Source: Escherichia coli O127:H6 str. E2348/69 (GTDB lineage Bacteria > Pseudomonadota > Gammaproteobacteria > Enterobacterales > Enterobacteriaceae). From it: a stretch of DNA of 64,000 nt. The DNA lies in assembly GCF_000026545.1 (NCBI RefSeq), contig NC_011601.1; one strand, written 5' to 3'. The notes below the pieces were generated by a model, which was not told the origin of the DNA, made no database searches, and worked only from the letters and a program-made list of their open reading frames with translations. Below, one piece after another: positions 2,313-38,269 of this stretch; position 1 is the first letter of the stretch; every line of letters starts with the position of its first letter. Both the position numbers and the translations under genes were made by a program.

Positions 2313-3374
2313 TTACCCCCGGTTAAGCGAGTCCTGAGTGCGGAGATCCGCCGCGCCACGCGCTTCGCACATCATATCCATGTACCACGCCAGGCCCCTT
2401 GTATCGCCAGTGTACATAATCCCGCGCACAATATAAACGCCATCCGTTGCGATGCTGGCAGGCTGCGATGTGGTGCCGCTTAGCGTGATATTTCCATCCG
2501 TGTTCTGGTCGGTGATCTGACCACCAGCCATCGCAATATCGTTGTTCGACAAGGCGGTACGATACACGGAAGCCTGATCCAGCTGAATGAGTCCGTTAAC
2601 CCGGATGTTCGGATTAATAAGCGCGCGGACGTTTACGCCGTTACCGATAGTCTGCTGCGGCATGCCAATAAGCCCGGTAGCGCTGTTGAGCACAATCGCT
2701 TCATGAACATATTCGTTATTCGCCACCATCTGGCGTTGACCGTCCACGAATTGCCATGTTGCGCCACATTGTCCGGCCACGTTATCCATAAGATGCCGTG
2801 TCATGCCGAACAGCACCCGCCCTCGAGGGAATACGGTAGCAGGCATTTCAGGCGTCAGGCCTTCGGTCGCGCCTTTGGCTTCGAAGTCTTTCATCAGCGC
2901 ACGGTTCACATCAGCGACCGTGTAACCGGCAGCCAGCGTCTGTGAGGTTATACTGGTGGCAAAAGCCAGATCAGTATCTGCTGCCTGAATCAGGACGTAG
3001 GTATCAACCGGACTGTCTTTTCCTGTGACCGAGTAGCGAATTTCACCGCTGAAAATCAGTCCGTAGTTGCGGCCATCTCTCTGGCCCACGTCCGCCGCGT
3101 CAACTTCCCGCACGGTCCCTACGTCGCTTGCTGACACCTCTGGCGCGACACCGTCGTAACCGGCAATCAGACGCACTTTCGAAAATTCCTGCCCGGTGAT
3201 TCGGTTCACAGTATCTGCCGAGAGGTTATAAATTTTGATAGTCCCTACCCGGGACGCGCTGCTGATGTTGAACCAGTCGATCGTAAAGGTGACTTTGAAA
3301 TCACTTAGCTCAATTCCCTGACCGTTCCCGTCCACAAGCTGCAGCTCGAAATGTCTCATCCAGTTCTGTGACAT
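2313..3374 (-). CDS. Tail/baseplate protein (putative baseplate hub)
   Basis: ORF track; position between tape-measure-proximal genes and gpV-like gene in a Mu/SfV-like tail cluster. Confidence 0.45.
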   Translation of the reverse strand: MSQNWMRHFELQLVDGNGQGIELSDFKVTFTIDWFNISSASRVGTIKIYNLSADTVNRITGQEFSKVRLIAGYDGVAPEVSASDVGTVREVDAADVGQRDGRNYGLIFSGEIRYSVTGKDSPVDTYVLIQAADTDLAFATSITSQTLAAGYTVADVNRALMKDFEAKGATEGLTPEMPATVFPRGRVLFGMTRHLMDNVAGQCGATWQFVDGQRQMVANNEYVHEAIVLNSATGLIGMPQQTIGNGVNVRALINPNIRVNGLIQLDQASVYRTALSNNDIAMAGGQITDQNTDGNITLSGTTSQPASIATDGVYIVRGIMYTGDTRGLAWYMDMMCEARGAADLRTQDSLNRG

Positions 3375-20196: not shown

Positions 20197-20709
20197 TTAA
20201 ACGGTATGATATTTAATTCTGGCGGCCTCAAAAGCCGCAGCGGCAAGTTCGGCAGTGTCATGGTATCCAAGGTTAATACACTTTCCAGACGCATTAATTC
20301 TTGCTCTCCATTTCCCGTACTTAGCATCCCAAGACACGCCACGGTATCCAGATTTATTATTCTTCTGAATTTTCCTGTTCTGCATATTTTCGGAATGAGT
20401 GACAAGACGAAGATTTGATATCCGGTTATCTGTTCTTACCCTGTTGATGTGATCAATAAAACCATCGGGCATGGTGCCATAAACAATCAACCATGCCAGT
20501 CTGTGAGCAGGGTATGCTTTACCATTAATCATAATCATTAAATACCCATCAGAATTTATTGATGAGCATTTCTTGAAAGCAAAACGAGAGTTCCATGTCA
20601 AAGTGGTCCTCTCTCTCCCCTGCCTCCATCTCCAGTGAAAGTCGCCTGATGATGGATTGTAATCAACAACAGAAAGCACCATTTCTGGCGTTAATTTTAT
20701 TTCTTTCAT
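20197..20709 (-). CDS. HNH homing endonuclease with AP2-type DNA-binding domain
   Basis: HNH-type His/Asn motif (HINRVRTDNRISNLRLVTHSEN) and AP2-like SGYRGVSWDAKYGKWRARI. Confidence 0.75.
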   Translation of the reverse strand: MKEIKLTPEMVLSVVDYNPSSGDFHWRWRQGRERTTLTWNSRFAFKKCSSINSDGYLMIMINGKAYPAHRLAWLIVYGTMPDGFIDHINRVRTDNRISNLRLVTHSENMQNRKIQKNNKSGYRGVSWDAKYGKWRARINASGKCINLGYHDTAELAAAAFEAARIKYHTV

Positions 20710-32337: not shown

Positions 32338-32474
32338 CCATCAATCACCAGATGCTTCGTGCTGCACAGAACAAAGCAGTAATAGCCAGATTTATTGGTG
32401 ATTCAAAAATGTGGCTTGAAGCAAATAAAGCGATGAAATCAGCTATCAACCTTCCGTGGTATCGCAGGAAATGA
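32322..32474 (+). CDS. kil: Kil-like small protein
   Basis: Hand translation MRNEIAINHQMLRAAQNKAVIARFIGDSKMWLEANKAMKSAINLPWYRRK resembles lambda Kil (FIGDEKMF region). Confidence 0.45.
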   Translation: MRNEIAINHQMLRAAQNKAVIARFIGDSKMWLEANKAMKSAINLPWYRRK

Positions 32475-32728
32475 GTTTTACAGATAACTGGTCAGACGAA
32501 GAATTCATTCGTCAGATGAAAGAATTAATCGGTAACGAAGGAGATATTCATGTCACTTGCAACCACAGTGAAGGAGAGCAAGTTACAGAGACGCATGTAC
32601 ACGCAGAAAGCTCTCTGGTATCGCCATAATGGTGACCGCGAAGGAATGCGGGTATGCCTTAATTTGTCCCGAGTCGAAGTATTAAATCAGCGTTATTTCC
32701 TTGGGCCGTGTCCATTCTGAGGTGAATT

Positions 32729-33436
32729 ATGGATTTGAACAAATTCGATGAGCCATTCAGCCCTGAAGATATAGAATGGAGAATACAGCAAAGCGGTAAA
32801 ACACGCGATGGCAAGGTGTGGGCTATGGTGCTGGCTTATGTCACGAACAGGGCAATCATGAAACGCCTTGACGATGTTTGCGGCAAAGCAGGATGGCGCA
32901 ATGAATACCGAGATATTCCCAACAACGGAGGCGTTGAATGCGGCATATCAATCAGGATTGATTCCGAATGGGTAACCAAATGGGATGCTGCTGAAAACAC
33001 GCAGGTAGAAGCCGTAAAAGGTGGTCGTTCCGGTGCAATGAAGCGCGCTGCCGTTCAGTGGGGAATCGGTCGGTATCTGTATAACCTTGAGGAAGGTTTC
33101 GCACAAACATCTCTCGATAAAAAGCAGGGATGGCACAGGGCAAAACTCAAGGATGGAACAGGATTTTACTGGCTCCCTCCATCGCTGCCGGGATGGGCAA
33201 TCCCAGCATCAGATAACAAACCATCACCAGAAAATACCAACCAGACATCTCCATCGGTTGACTGCGAACAAATCCTGAAAGACTTCAGCGATTATGCATC
33301 AACAGAAACTGACAAGAAAAAACTCATCGAGCGTTATCAGCGTGACTGGCAATTAATGGCTGGCAACGAGGAGGCACAGGCTAAATGCGTTCAGGTAATG
33401 AACATCAGAGTTAACGAACTAAAACAGGCGGCATAA
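32729..33436 (+). CDS. Single-strand annealing protein, Rad52/Sak-like
   Basis: Rad52-type core recognised; occupies bet/erf position. Confidence 0.65.
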   Translation: MDLNKFDEPFSPEDIEWRIQQSGKTRDGKVWAMVLAYVTNRAIMKRLDDVCGKAGWRNEYRDIPNNGGVECGISIRIDSEWVTKWDAAENTQVEAVKGGRSGAMKRAAVQWGIGRYLYNLEEGFAQTSLDKKQGWHRAKLKDGTGFYWLPPSLPGWAIPASDNKPSPENTNQTSPSVDCEQILKDFSDYASTETDKKKLIERYQRDWQLMAGNEEAQAKCVQVMNIRVNELKQAA

Positions 33437-33904
33437 ATGTCTCACTTGGACGGAATTATTAAAAGATTCGAGTCCAGCTACAAAGTTAATGAAACAACAG
33501 GTTGCTGGGAGTCTACCTATTCAAAAAACAAAGGAGGATACACAAAATTTGTAGCCTTTGGCGTAACAATGCTTTCTCATCGGGTTGCTTTTGAGCTTTA
33601 TCACTCCCCCATTCCATCTGGGAAGATGGTTTGCCACAAATGCGATAACCAATGCTGCGTTAATCCTGAACATCTCTTTTTAGGTAGCGCGCAAGAAAAC
33701 ATGGACGACAAGATAGCAAAAGGAAGGCATCGTGGAGCCAAGAAAGGTCATGCTCATCATGGTGCAAAATTAACAGAGTGGCAGGTTATAGAAATTAGGA
33801 AAAGACTCTCTGAAAAAGAGAGTCAGTACAAGATAGCAAAAGACATGGGTGTATCTCAATCAATTATAAGCAACATAAAAACTGGCAAGAGGTGGAGCAA
33901 ATGA
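33437..33904 (+). CDS. HNH homing endonuclease (free-standing, between annealase and ssb)
   Basis: HNH motif [26 protein letters not shown]. Confidence 0.75.
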
Positions 33905-34407
33905 GTTCTCGCGGGATAAATAAGGTGATTATCCTTGGTCGGGTAGGACAAGACCCGGAAGTTCGATACTCACCATCAGGAACAGCGTTCGCTAACCTGA
34001 CAATAGCCACGTCAGAACAATGGCGAGATAAAAATACTGGCGAGCAAAAGGAATTGACTGAATGGCATCGTGTTGCTGTATCCGGGAAACTGGCTGAGGT
34101 CGTGGGGCAGTATGTGAAAAAAGGTGATCAGATTTATTTCGAGGGAATGCTGAGAACCAGAAAGTGGAAAGACCAGTCAGGGCAAGACCGTTACACAACC
34201 GAGGTTCATGTCGGAATTAATGGCGTGATGCAAATGCTTGGCGGCATTGGCGACAGCAAACAACAAGCAGCCAGCAGGCAATCACAGAAGCCACAGCAGC
34301 AATCATCACCAGCACAACACAACGAACCTCCGATGGATTTTGACGACGATATACCCTTTGCACCAGTAACTCTCCCCTTCCCTCGTCACGCTATTCACGC
34401 AATTTAA
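33892..34407 (+). CDS. ssb: Single-stranded DNA-binding protein
   Basis: OB-fold SSB N-terminus, Gln/Pro-rich linker and acidic DDDIPF tail. Confidence 0.85.
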
Positions 34408-34420
34408 TCAGGAGAAAATC

Positions 34421-34714
34421 ATGCCAGCGCCTCTGTATGGTGCGGATGACCCGCGCCGCTGTTCCGGCAATTCCGTATCGGAGGTGCTGGATAAATTCAG
34501 AAAAAACTACGATCGAATAATGTCTCTACCGCAGGAAACGAAAGAGGAAAAGGAATTTCGCCACTGTATATGGCTTGCAGAGAAAGAAGAACGCGAGCGA
34601 ATTTACCAGACATCAATCCGACCATTCCGCAAAGCCACATATACCCACTTCCCTGAAATTGACCCGCGCCTGCGTAATTACCGCTCACGTTATGGCGCTA
34701 TCAGTAATGACTGA
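34421..34714 (+). CDS. Hypothetical protein
   Basis: ORF track. Confidence 0.4.
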
Positions 34715-34724
34715 GGAATTTACC

Positions 34725-34892
34725 ATGAGAGGACTTGCATACAATCCCGGCATTCTTCCGGCAGAAATGATTATTCGCCAACGCGTAAAGCCAATGCCAT
34801 CGAGAGAGGAATTGCTTAAGAGAAATTCTTCTCCGTCAGTGAATCAAAACAAATATCTGAATGCGATGTGGCGCAAAGGAGGCAACCAGTGA
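34725..34892 (+). CDS. Small hypothetical protein
   Basis: ORF track 34575..34892 trimmed to ATG 34725 with GAGGA RBS. Confidence 0.3.
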
Positions 34893-35158
34893 GTGAGTCA
34901 AAATGCCAAATTAATGGCAACAAGATAGAACCGTGCGCGGCGTTGGCAAAATCTCTCGAATATGGAAATCCAACATTCAAGAGTAAAGGCATATTTATCC
35001 CGGAGCGTGTGAACATAAACACCGGCGAGTCATGCATAGATATTGCTCAAATTCACTCGGGGAAATATATCGGTCGTGGCGTTGCAATGTGCTTTTGCCC
35101 GTTCTGTGGTGAAAGTTTGAAAACGTGGGAAGCGGAGGCAGCCAGTGAGCAAAATTGA
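34868..35158 (+). CDS. Hypothetical Cys-rich protein
   Basis: ORF track; CxxC pair near C-terminus. Confidence 0.35.
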
Positions 35159-35783
35159 CCATCAGGCACTGCGTGAGGCGGCAGAGCAGGCAATGCATGA
35201 CGACTGGGGATTTGACGCGGACCTTTTCCATGAGCTGGTAACACCATCGATTGTGCTGGAACTGCTGGATGAACAGGAAAGAAACCAGCAATACATCAAA
35301 CGCCGCGACCAGGAGAACGAGGAGATTGCGCTTACGGTTGGGAAGCTGCGTGTTGAGCTTGAAGCAGCAGAGAACAACCTTATTGATAGTGAATGCCATG
35401 TTGCTGAACTGGAAGAAGCTCTACGCGATAAGCAGGCGTTACTTGAAGCCTCAGAAAAGCGCAACGCAAAATTACAAAGCGAGAATGCATACATCCGCAA
35501 CCGGTACAAAGAACTGGACCTATTAATCGGGAAAAACATTCTGGTCATGCAGGCTGCCATTATCGAATGGCAGGCAACTGGCGACGCTAAGAGCGGACTA
35601 GCATGGATTTATAACACACTGTTTGGCCCTGGCGAATTACCGGACGAATCTGAGAAAGATGCTCAGGCCTACTTTAATCGCAAATATGCACCGATTGACG
35701 AAAAGCTTATGGCGCTTCACAAGTGGTTTTGGGAACAAAGTGAAGCCGAGCGCGCCGCTGGCATTCGCATCAAAGGAGAGTGA
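35145..35783 (+). CDS. Ea22-like early protein (coiled coil)
   Basis: Resembles lambdoid Ea22-family proteins as recalled. Confidence 0.5.
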   Translation: MSKIDHQALREAAEQAMHDDWGFDADLFHELVTPSIVLELLDEQERNQQYIKRRDQENEEIALTVGKLRVELEAAENNLIDSECHVAELEEALRDKQALLEASEKRNAKLQSENAYIRNRYKELDLLIGKNILVMQAAIIEWQATGDAKSGLAWIYNTLFGPGELPDESEKDAQAYFNRKYAPIDEKLMALHKWFWEQSEAERAAGIRIKGE

Positions 35784-35784
35784 G

Positions 35785-35976
35785 ATGAACGGACAAATCT
35801 CAATTGTTCGACCGGGAGCATGTGACGATTGCGAGATACGAATGATTATTCGTCTGGCGAGGGGGAAAACAATAACTGCTCTCATTACTCCAGAAAATCT
35901 CGCATTAGCATTAACCGGAAAGTCAGACCTGCCAGTAGAGCTAAAGCTGCGAAATGTTGAGATTAAGGTGAAATAG
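35785..35976 (+). CDS. Small hypothetical protein
   Basis: ORF track 35623..35976 trimmed to ATG 35785. Confidence 0.35.
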   Translation: MNGQISIVRPGACDDCEIRMIIRLARGKTITALITPENLALALTGKSDLPVELKLRNVEIKVK

Positions 35977-35978
35977 CT

Positions 35979-36374
35979 ATGACCACTATTACCAAAGAGC
36001 GACTGCTGACAATCAAGCAGTGGCGCGAAACATACGGACCGGGTAGCAACGTTGTACTGCCAGCAGAAGAAGCGGAAGAACTGGCACGAATTGCTCTGGC
36101 ATCGCTGGAAGTCGAGCCGATAGGTTTCCGTTGCAGGCGCAATGATAACCTTGGTGATTGGAGTTACGTATATCATCGAGAGCCAGATGATTTTGAGCGC
36201 AAACATTTAGTGATAGAGGGCATTTACGCCGCCCCTCCAGCGCAAGTAGTACCGAAAGAAAAACCAATGCCTAATCCTCTTAGCATGTACGCGGTTGATG
36301 CTGTTGCCGCTATTGCAGAGGTGAGAGGCTGGAACGCCTGCCGTGCCGCTATGCTTCAGGGGAAAGGAGACTGA
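35979..36374 (+). CDS. Hypothetical protein; N-terminus paralogous to 36584..37216
   Basis: Shared MTTITxE...ELARIALASLE segment with downstream DUF551-type protein. Confidence 0.45.
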   Translation: MTTITKERLLTIKQWRETYGPGSNVVLPAEEAEELARIALASLEVEPIGFRCRRNDNLGDWSYVYHREPDDFERKHLVIEGIYAAPPAQVVPKEKPMPNPLSMYAVDAVAAIAEVRGWNACRAAMLQGKGD

Positions 36375-36375
36375 T

Positions 36376-36573
36376 ATGGATAAAAACACCACTGCTTACT
36401 GGAATCTGTCACTTGATACCGAATGCCCAAAATGCGGTCACAATTTCGATCTGCTTTGTGACGCTGATTTCTGGGAGTTTTCTGGAGCTAAACAGGCATG
36501 TGAAGAAATAAAAGGTTACGAAACATGCTGTCCAGAATGTAACCATGAATTTAAAACAGATTTCGTGTATTGA
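36376..36573 (+). CDS. Small zinc-ribbon protein (two CxxC pairs)
   Basis: ORF track 36343..36573 trimmed to ATG 36376; CPKCGH...CCPECNH. Confidence 0.4.
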   Translation: MDKNTTAYWNLSLDTECPKCGHNFDLLCDADFWEFSGAKQACEEIKGYETCCPECNHEFKTDFVY

Positions 36574-36583
36574 GGCATAACAA

Positions 36584-37216
36584 ATGACCACTATTACCAG
36601 AGAACAGGCACAGAAAATTATTGAAGCAGCCGATGAGGTTATTAGTGCGCTTGCCGGAACTAACGAGGATGTTCACCCTGGTAGCGATAACATGCTACGC
36701 CTGTGGGATGACCTGAATGACCGTTACGCGCCCCCTGAAGTTGTGCGTGAGCTGGCACGAATTGCACTGGCATCACTGGAAGCAGAGCCTGTAAGCCAAA
36801 CTTACAACTTGCCAGAATTAATCGAAGGGATGGAAGTTTCCATTGATGTAAGCACTTGTGATGCTGATTTAGGTAATCGCTATTTCGGTACCGTCACCGA
36901 GGCGTTAGAACTTGATACAGCCAAGAATGGTTACATCCTCCTAGTTCAGGACGCAGAGCCAAACTTCGATGTAAATGGCAACTCTCCGGTAATTCCGGGC
37001 GGTTGGATAAGCTGTAGTGAGCGAATGCCGGATAGCAAAACAGCCGTTCTTGTTGCCAGGGAGTTTGACAGGAAAGGTGACTGGCGAATGAAATGGGCGA
37101 CTTACATCCCGGGGCATCCTGACGCTAATGATGGGTGGGTAATACCTGGTGCGTCGTGGATACCATCACACTGGATGCCGCTACCAGAACCGCCGCAGGA
37201 GGTTAACCATGGCTAA
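36584..37216 (+). CDS. DUF551-type protein
   Basis: C-terminal W-rich DUF551-like region (WISCSERMPDS...WMPLPEPP). Confidence 0.5.
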   Translation: MTTITREQAQKIIEAADEVISALAGTNEDVHPGSDNMLRLWDDLNDRYAPPEVVRELARIALASLEAEPVSQTYNLPELIEGMEVSIDVSTCDADLGNRYFGTVTEALELDTAKNGYILLVQDAEPNFDVNGNSPVIPGGWISCSERMPDSKTAVLVAREFDRKGDWRMKWATYIPGHPDANDGWVIPGASWIPSHWMPLPEPPQEVNHG

Positions 37217-37316
37217 CCTGCAACTTGCCGTCAAAGGTGAATAACAATCCTCGCACTCGCGGGGATTTCTTTTATCTGAACTCGCTACGGCGAGTTTTGT
37301 TTTATGGAGATGATAA

Positions 37317-37541: not shown

Positions 37542-37742
37542 ATGCAACACGAATTACAGCCTGATTCACTGGTTGATTTGAAATTCATCATGGCCGATAC
37601 TGGCTTCGGTAAAACCTTCATCTATGACCGGATTAAGTCCGGCGACCTGCCAAAAGCCAAAGTTATCCACGGGCGAGCAAGATGGTTATATCGTGACCAT
37701 TGTGAATTCAAAAATAAGCTCTTAAGCCGCGCCAATGGGTAA
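37542..37742 (+). CDS. torI: Excisionase / recombination directionality factor TorI
   Basis: 66-aa translation matches the KplE1 TorI sequence as recalled; located at prophage right end next to attR. Confidence 0.75.
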   Translation: MQHELQPDSLVDLKFIMADTGFGKTFIYDRIKSGDLPKAKVIHGRARWLYRDHCEFKNKLLSRANG

Positions 37743-37816
37743 AATAGCGGGTAAAATATTTCTCACATCTAAAAAACTCCATTCCAATCAATCCCCTGCC
37801 GCTTCAAGTAGATGTC

Positions 37817-37830
37817 TGCAGGGGACACCA
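37817..37830. other. attR core: duplicated 3' end of tRNA-Arg argW
   Basis: ctgcaggggacacca matches the 3' acceptor end of argW as recalled; phage-type genes stop here. Confidence 0.5.
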
Positions 37831-38269
37831 GATACCCTTCAAACGATATCTACCTTCACCCCGTAAAAGATAAGTTTGGCAGCACATTTGCCCTATCTAC
37901 TCATTTTTCCTGCAACAGGTTGAAATCTCAACACGGTCAGAAAACGCTGATGACTAAACAGCCCTGGGCCGGGCGATGTAACCATCACACACAATCCTGA
38001 TCGCGAAATATGGCGTGACTTGATACTTCACTCCACAATGCTTTCCTTGATGAATTCGCAGGCCCGTGATACACGGGACAGGTCGCTGAATTACGACAAT
38101 GCCCTGGAAATCAGCGAGCCGTGTATCCAGAGTACATTTGAGCGACTGTACCAGAACATGAATGAGGCGTTTGGATTAGGCGATTATTAGCAGGGCTAAG
38201 CATTTTGGTATTATTATTTTCCGGTTGAGGGATATAGAGCTATCGACAACAACCGGAAAAAGTTTACGT

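Follow-up and report, generated by a model that had tools for sequence, protein, structure and literature searches.

A probable free-standing homing endonuclease gene at the 5' end of ssb in the recombination module of an Escherichia coli prophage

Escherichia coli O127:H6 strain E2348/69 harbors, at intS/argW (tRNA-Arg), a lambdoid prophage in which a free-standing gene for an HNH endonuclease is wedged between the genes for a single-strand annealing protein (annealase) and a phage single-stranded DNA-binding protein (SSB). We analyzed a 64,000-nt stretch of this genome (RefSeq assembly GCF_000026545.1, contig NC_011601.1), called the window throughout, in which position x corresponds to record position 1589088 - x. 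The HNH gene occupies 33437..33904 on the plus strand and is an intact open reading frame (ORF) of 155 amino acids with an ATG start. Immediately upstream on the same strand is the annealase gene (32729..33436), whose product belongs to the Rad52/Rad22 family and is often labelled 'Erf-like' (Pfam Rad52_Rad22, E = 7e-26; PHROG 1097, E = 1e-129), and immediately downstream, again on the plus strand, is the ssb gene (33901..34407; 168 amino acids; Pfam SSB, E = 1.7e-36). Both flanking ORFs are complete, and the three genes are packed without a spare base: the annealase TAA is at 33434-33436 and the ATG of the HNH gene begins at the very next position, 33437, and the HNH stop codon (TGA, 33902-33904) overlaps the ATG of ssb at 33901 in the form ATGA. 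The initial annotation, made from the letters of the sequence, had given the ORF a start abutting the annealase stop and an end overlapping the ssb start, which is correct to the base. For ssb, we take the ATG at 33901 as the start, since it is the one annotated by PGAP and agrees with the N-termini of homologues; the GTG at 33892 given in the ORF listing results merely from choosing the first possible start.

These genes belong to the early-left (PL) operon of the prophage, whose order is N - ... - cIII - kil - annealase - HNH - ssb - abc2 - ... - torI, and the recombination (Rec) module of the window consists of annealase, HNH, SSB and Abc2, with no further nuclease. Because a promoter and terminator scan gave no promoter of its own for the HNH gene above chance, and an Rfam scan gave no intron or other RNA family there, the gene would be transcribed from PL together with the annealase, SSB and Abc2 genes. 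As judged from the arrangement of the two ORFs, the ATGA overlap couples translation of ssb to that of the HNH gene, and direct reading of the last ~20 nt upstream of ssb (AAGAGGTGGAGCAA) reveals a Shine-Dalgarno-like sequence 6 nt 5' of the ssb ATG. The HNH gene is poorer in G+C (40.7%) than the genes on its two sides (47.7% and 48.5%). Its coding region also contains, ahead of the part that encodes the C-terminal DNA-binding domain described below, an 8-bp perfect inverted repeat (GACTCTCT-GAAAA-AGAGAGTC, 33804-33824), which was flagged as terminator-like on the minus strand, the number of such sites being within chance.

The HNH gene is an insertion, and constitutes a presence/absence polymorphism with the precise dimensions of an ORF. 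In phages mEp235, mEpX2 and HK75, whose flanks are 98.3-98.7% identical to those of the window, the annealase TAA directly abuts the ATG of ssb, and the matched region spans 1215 nt as opposed to 1679 nt in the window, i.e., it is exactly 464 bp shorter. In mEp235, the final base of the annealase coding sequence stands immediately before the ssb coding sequence, and its alignment with the window contains one clean gap. When the window is aligned with mEp235, Huey and Sf6, the segment missing from HNH-less relatives is 33437..33900 on the plus strand, which comprises the HNH ORF except for the 4 nt that it shares with ssb as ATGA.

Among 5426 complete E. coli genomes, the HNH gene is present in 40, at 99.1-100% identity and always adjoining ssb, and every full-length copy carries the annotation of an intact gene. 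Matches to some portion of the module were obtained in 419 of these genomes and to the junction flanks in about 397. The insert thus occupies about one in ten modules, and in about 350 E. coli prophages the annealase gene runs straight into ssb. A DNA search of a phage collection with the HNH gene returned just a 68% partial match, to a Vibrio phage, and no sequenced cultured phage in that collection has this allele. The insertion between annealase and ssb that was proposed in the initial annotation is therefore borne out by uninterrupted junctions, both in the three phages named above and in most E. coli prophages that have the module, and the gene is far from being conserved in all relatives, with about 40 of the 397 E. 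coli genomes carrying it.

Adjoining the right-hand edge of the insert is a short stretch of ssb in which filled and empty sites differ sharply. Direct reading and alignments delimit this recoded patch to ssb codons 2-6 (33904..33918, plus strand), which are AGT TCT CGC GGG ATA (S S R G I) in the window and GCA AGC AGA GGC GTA (A S R G V) at empty sites: 10 of 15 nt differ, with three codons synonymous and the two replacements conservative. The remaining flank has 18 differences from mEp235 in 1188 nt, and at that rate the chance of at least 10 differences in a given 15-nt stretch is, by our own binomial estimate, about 1e-15.

The patch occurs in all 14 of the filled loci that we compared, whatever their ssb allele, and in none of the five empty loci; the filled loci include M9 (locus L017), in which ssb turns Sf6-type 29 nt into the gene, and L019, in which ssb is chimeric. 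No patched empty site was found in the loci read, and in exact-pattern scans of IMG/VR the canonical empty junction was present in at least 120 contigs and the 3' end of the HNH gene followed by the patch in 28, whereas no contig had an empty junction followed by the patch. When a synthetic query representing a precise deletion of the insert was compared with E. coli genomes, filled sites were 98.8-100% identical to it among the matches listed, except for those in a divergent ssb background (e.g., M9, at 90.6%), and the best empty site among these matches reached 95.9%, which corresponds to the ten patch mismatches. Moreover, in the Cronobacter and Citrobacter clades of this HNH protein (73-74% identical), ssb again begins ATG AGT TCT CG(C/T) GG. 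In form, the patch resembles donor sequence carried along by co-conversion, or a change conferring self-immunity at the site of homing, and we propose that it could be an immunity or co-conversion footprint at the target of the endonuclease.

HNH copies that are at least 98.9% identical have become joined to three ssb backgrounds in different prophages: an mEp235-type, an Sf6-type (loci L017, L167 and L168) and a chimeric type (L019 and L173). The switch to another ssb type can occur as near as 29 nt into ssb, and the HNH-bearing prophages differ in their immunity and N regions. (An apparent case of a different annealase, at locus L160, was rejected: it is the same gene with an indel that had shifted an ungapped comparison.) In E2348/69 itself, the HNH gene is also borne by another lambdoid prophage, located at about 3.436 Mb, whose N and immunity genes are different. 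The two prophages share a 4776-bp block of 99.9% identity (2 mismatches and 1 gap; window 32471-37246) that begins 5' of the annealase gene, takes in HNH, ssb and abc2, and ends at a DUF551 gene, which looks like a recent exchange between resident prophages.

Among more distant homologues, down to 59% identity, the gene upstream varies and ssb lies downstream, such that ssb is the constant partner of the HNH gene. All of the homologues that we examined at 59% identity or more lie directly 5' of ssb. The Cronobacter-type homologue (73% identity) follows an ERF or a Rad52 annealase, which are unrelated families, and the Citrobacter type (74%) follows a Rad52 annealase; the homologue in Vibrio phage 1.079.O (61%) follows an ERF gene and that in P0009 (60%) an RdgC-like gene, and each of these four overlaps ssb by 4 nt. 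The Shewanella homologue (59%) follows an unknown 143-amino-acid gene and has an 8-nt overlap. At 46% identity, the P0022 homologue occupies a different context and does not adjoin ssb.

The left half of the insertion site consists of the last ~20 nt of the annealase gene (GAACTAAAACAGGCGGCATAA), which are kept even where the annealase upstream is of the unrelated ERF family (loci L021-L029). A comparison of window 33416-33436 (GAACTNAAACAGGCGGCATAA, encoding ...ELKQAA*) with L021-L025 around their positions 2480-2500 found this 3' end to be common to ERF (L021) and Rad52_Rad22 (L022 and the window) annealases. Such conservation across two families agrees with the C-terminal 'Erf domain swaps' described in P22-like phages (PMC2629481), and the conserved segment sits at the left edge of the insertion site. 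Taken together, the contexts suggest a target centered on the conserved 5' end of ssb, which in enterobacterial phages would extend into the annealase stop region.

The predicted protein has the attributes of a nuclease. Its central part matches Pfam HNH_3 (PF13392; E = 3.7e-13, 49.3 bits against a cutoff of 24.8, residues 48-89), and the protein also matches three PHROG families named 'HNH endonuclease' (59, 1872 and 6254, with E down to 3.5e-32) and, weakly, the PADLOC homing endonuclease model 'HEase' (6e-8) and Pfam HTH_38. The Pfam zf-His_Me_endon model scored 22 bits, under its cutoff of 27, and NCBIfam contained no specific model for the protein, the sole match being a sub-threshold one to an invertase helix-turn-helix (HTH). 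Three regions can be distinguished: an N-terminal beta region (residues ~1-46) that includes the invariant C23; a core resembling HNH_3 and His-Cys-box proteins (~47-95), with H48-R49, C66-H67-K-C69-D70-N71, C74, N76-P77, H79 and N88; and a C-terminal three-helix HTH (~111-150). Across an alignment of 59 homologues, C23, Y35, H67, C69, D70, C74, N76, P77, H79, L80, F81, G83, N88, D91, K95 and R97 are invariant and H48, R49, C66, K68 and N71 nearly so.

Because sequence and profile searches of the PDB were weak (a single-protein search gave nothing for the nuclease part and just weak HTH matches, and a profile search gave a weak match to I-PpoI, with E about 0.03), a comparison of folds was needed. 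An AlphaFold2 model built from the 59-homologue alignment (mean predicted local distance difference test score, 89.4) places strands at residues 64-67 and 80-83, followed by a helix at 85-95 and a three-helix bundle at 114-149, and so has the predicted features of a beta-beta-alpha-metal fold. Foldseek ranked I-HmuI first among PDB entries (probability 0.99) and four I-PpoI entries next (0.99-1.00, 23-28% identity), with Tc3/Hin-like HTH structures beneath them. In the alignment profile, the core C-H-K-C-D-N-x-x-C-V-N-P-E-H-L...N aligns with the I-PpoI segment H98/C100/C105/H110/N119, pairing H67 with H98 and N88 with N119, and C69, C74 and H79 with C100, C105 and H110. From this pairing, H67 is likely to be the general base and N88 a metal ligand, and C69, C74 and H79 are likely zinc ligands; C23, which would be equivalent to I-PpoI C41, may be added to them. 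Sequence and model thus agree on a His-Me-finger (HNH_3) nuclease that is predicted to combine an I-PpoI-like zinc and catalytic motif with a C-terminal HTH of the Hin/Tc3/resolvase type, and the HTH would bind DNA by analogy with characterized modular homing endonucleases. The assignment to HNH endonucleases in the initial annotation accordingly survives both the domain search and the structural model, whose nearest folds are I-HmuI and I-PpoI.

Conservation of this kind bears on the possibility that the gene is a decayed or domesticated remnant, now immobile, whose product is a catalytically dead DNA-binding regulator. That the HTH weakly matches regulators, and that one homologue is named 'homeodomain-like protein' in its record, would be in keeping with such a role. 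Since the catalytic and zinc-ligand positions are invariant in the 59 homologues and present in the 155-amino-acid protein, and since the presence/absence pattern and the multiple flank backgrounds argue for recent mobility, we regard this explanation as extremely improbable.

A nuclease gene residing among recombination genes might instead be a working part of the Rec module, i.e., a nickase or nuclease making DNA ends for the Rad52-type annealase and SSB in the role of Exo, RecE and the DnaQ-like nucleases. Its tight packing and translational coupling with the annealase and ssb genes are what such a role would lead one to expect, the module of the window has no other nuclease, the adjacency of HNH and ssb is kept across Gammaproteobacteria, and the full-length E. 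coli copies are uniformly annotated as intact. Moreover, a 2025 survey treats HNH genes as a fourth nuclease type of lambdoid Rec modules and, while urging caution over their mobility, deems some HNH genes of Rec modules, namely ES18 gp47, probably legitimate (PMC12315714). We nonetheless hold this role to be improbable for the E2348/69 gene. About 90% of near-identical modules are missing it, it has a sequence-specific HTH of the homing-enzyme kind, it is lower in G+C than its neighbors, and its junction with ssb bears the recoded patch; the ES18 gene, for its part, is a different HNH gene in a different slot, 3' of ssb. Nor does the gene fill an empty nuclease slot, since a DnaQ-like exonuclease gene follows ssb in 10 of the HNH-bearing loci and is missing from the other 30, counts that come from partly redundant, non-independent loci. 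We therefore set aside the idea that the HNH gene compensates for an absent DnaQ-like exonuclease, which the distribution does not cleanly follow.

If the enzyme recognizes the start of ssb, the gains to its carrier need not come from gene copying. The HNH protein could act chiefly as a weapon of competition or exclusion that damages the ssb start of HNH-less competitor phages and prophages, and possibly of the host ssb, to the benefit of the carrier with or without copying of the gene. In that the first 30 nt of the K-12 chromosomal ssb differ from the empty phage site at only 3 positions, as opposed to 10 for the carrier's own ssb, the host gene might present a similar target; and the comparative signals described above, together with the weak match to the PADLOC model, are as compatible with a weapon as they are with homing. 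On the other hand, the sequence upstream of the K-12 ssb is unrelated to the phage site: the left half of the junction, conserved in enterobacterial copies, is absent 5' of the host gene, and there is no evidence for a recognition site lying wholly within ssb. The explanation is also hardly distinct from homing, marker exclusion and homing being coincident for the T4 Seg and Mob enzymes (PMC2988022). A role chiefly as a weapon seems to us distinctly improbable.

We consider it highly probable that the E2348/69 gene is a free-standing homing endonuclease gene, of the kind that spreads by 'intronless homing', targeting the 5' end of the phage ssb gene. Homing had been proposed in the initial annotation and is supported by comparative anatomy, from which we also infer the cleavage activity, the type of lesion (a nick or a double-strand cut), the exact target and the present-day mobility of the gene. 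The pattern agrees with the published behavior of free-standing phage HNH and Seg endonucleases, by analogy with which the process may be reconstructed (PMC2988022). The enzyme would be produced during induction or infection, at the same time as the annealase, SSB and anti-RecBCD proteins of the phage, and would nick or cut the HNH-less allele of a co-resident or co-infecting relative at or beside the junction of annealase stop and ssb start (...AAACAGGCGGCATAA|ATGGCAAGCAGAGGCGTAAATAAGG...). Since the phage HNH homing enzymes I-HmuI, MobA and MobE are nickases, a nick would be the likelier lesion here (PMC2988022). Repair from the HNH-bearing genome would then copy in the 464-bp gene plus the adjacent ~15 nt of recoded ssb, the recombination proteins for such repair of the lesion from the homologous template being the annealase, SSB and Abc2. 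The carrier's own site would be protected, both by the splitting of the target through the insertion and by the recoding of ssb codons 2-6. The phage would pay little for the element: the insert would take over the former translation-initiation context of ssb, which has the same upstream sequence, and would provide ssb with a new Shine-Dalgarno-like sequence and the ATGA overlap, so that expression of ssb is kept.

Among characterized enzymes, close parallels are I-HmuI and I-HmuII, intron-encoded homing endonucleases of the HNH type that nick DNA and come from Bacillus phages SPO1 and SP82 (PDB 1U3E); sequence identity is just 16%. I-HmuI is longer (174 amino acids vs. 155), and its gene is housed in a group I intron that interrupts a DNA polymerase gene, whereas the E2348/69 gene stands free between two ORFs with no intron; nor is I-HmuI, in its 1U3E structure, known to have the Cys/His zinc site that is invariant in the E2348/69 protein family. 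The His-Cys box enzyme I-PpoI of Physarum (PDB 1A73) is eukaryotic, intron-encoded and homodimeric, makes double-strand cuts and has no HTH, unlike the E2348/69 protein, which is phage-borne and has an added HTH. In its genomic setting, the gene resembles T4 MobA-MobE and Seg, which are likewise free-standing genes wedged between conserved genes in some relatives only, and are inherited by gene conversion with flanking markers; the T4 Mob proteins, too, have an HNH domain and a distinct C-terminal DNA-binding region (PMC2988022). However, the T4 enzymes cut hundreds to thousands of bp from their own genes, whereas the flank difference in E2348/69 is confined to the 15-nt patch beside the insert. 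This suggests that the target coincides with the insertion point, as it does for enzymes encoded in introns. The E2348/69 gene further differs from the T4 systems in residing in a temperate lambdoid phage and within a recombination module.

Similar sporadic genes are known from a second variable site of this module, the slot between ssb and abc2, which is empty in the window (34408-34420). ES18 gp47, a T7 gene 7.7-like HNH protein, and Sf6 gp26 are likewise products of small, sporadic, nuclease-like genes in the annealase-ssb-abc2 module of close relatives, but they are different proteins, their slot is 3' rather than 5' of ssb, and Sf6 gp26 has no Pfam hit. Elsewhere the slot contains a DnaQ/Rv2179c-like 3'-5' exonuclease gene (mEp235) or, as in Sf6 (gp26) and Huey, a gene for a 155-159-amino-acid 'endonuclease'; genes in this slot were located at 2724-3272 of locus L001, 2686-3153 of L002, 2692-3171 of L003 and 3718-4239 of L184. 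We had considered Sf6 and Huey as cases of a different endonuclease at the same junction as the HNH gene, and rejected this because their 'endonuclease' lies 3' of ssb and has no Pfam domain. According to its record note, the Sf6/Huey protein shares 14 identical residues with the tail of E. coli SSB, as might be expected had an insertion displaced the 3' end of ssb.

Several considerations weigh against the homing interpretation. The patch touches the insert, so that perfect linkage to the HNH gene is expected from proximity alone, and it could be a mere piece of the original donor ssb rather than a selected immunity change; in addition, the ATGA overlap requires codon 2 to begin with A, and this explains the change from Ala to Ser. 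The 99.1-100% identity of the 40 E. coli copies, with the full-length ones annotated as intact, fits recent spread and selection for a function useful to the phage equally well. The translationally coupled synteny of HNH and ssb, which extends beyond E. coli to Vibrio and Shewanella, could mean that they form a functional two-gene unit, and the recent survey argues that some HNH genes of Rec modules are genuine recombination nucleases (PMC12315714). Finally, the presence of the gene in both E2348/69 prophages need not reflect homing, and we rejected homing between these two residents as a case of it, since ordinary recombination explains the identical 4.8-kb block equally well.

The same prophage has a second free-standing HNH gene (20197..20709), as the initial annotation had stated in describing the two as independent insertions. 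This gene, on the minus strand, encodes a 170-amino-acid protein with Pfam HNH_3 (E = 2e-18) and AP2 (E = 3e-8) domains, and lies between the gene for antiterminator Q and the prophage tRNA-Asn (20068-20142, minus strand), tRNA-Thr (19987-20062, minus strand) and holin genes, directly upstream of the tRNAs; it does not belong to the element in the recombination module. Relatives whose Q-tRNA-holin regions are 98% identical (e.g., strain GS04) have this region in a form that is ~700 bp shorter, with the tRNAs kept and no HNH gene annotated there, and only 36 of the 1493 genomes matching a query with the second gene cover at least 80% of it. Strain ETEC-2264 has the ssb-linked HNH gene, and its Q-holin region, ~12-13 kb away as in the window, is ~700 bp shorter with no HNH gene annotated, which looks like a case of one HNH gene without the other in apparently the same prophage. 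The two insertions are therefore independent, given that the proteins are only 24% identical and have little in common beyond the shared domain, that each gene is polymorphic for presence and absence, and that ETEC-2264 has one only. As for the limits of the prophage, its torI end in the window (37545-38193) contains a 153-nt fragment of a DUF4942 gene followed by a host major facilitator superfamily (MFS) transporter gene, and the integrase gene (intS) is at the opposite end of the prophage, outside the window.

The weight of these findings for biology at large is limited, in that free-standing HNH homing endonucleases of phages are well known and RefSeq already names the E2348/69 protein (WP_000018648.1) 'HNH endonuclease'. 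A literature search of incomplete coverage found no paper on this gene or on the ssb-linked HNH clade. The gene is an ordinary, though unusually clean, case of a mobile homing-endonuclease gene. There is a small chance that the ssb-linked HNH-HTH clade is more than a passenger, either working in partnership with ssb and the Rec module or serving as a weapon against rival phages, and perhaps against the host chromosome, by nicking the conserved 5' end of their ssb genes; were either true, recombination-dependent replication or exclusion would start at a defined site.

As a homing-endonuclease gene, it provides a tidy natural example in which filled and empty sites, along with the 15-nt recoded patch, can be delimited to the base, and in which the element sits inside a recombination module whose products would repair the break that it makes. 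Its link to the 5' end of ssb holds over several gammaproteobacterial genera. The case thus bears on whether the HNH genes of Rec modules are recombination nucleases or mobile passengers (PMC12315714): for the E2348/69 gene, the comparative evidence favors a passenger, and the predicted target sequence makes the question directly testable.

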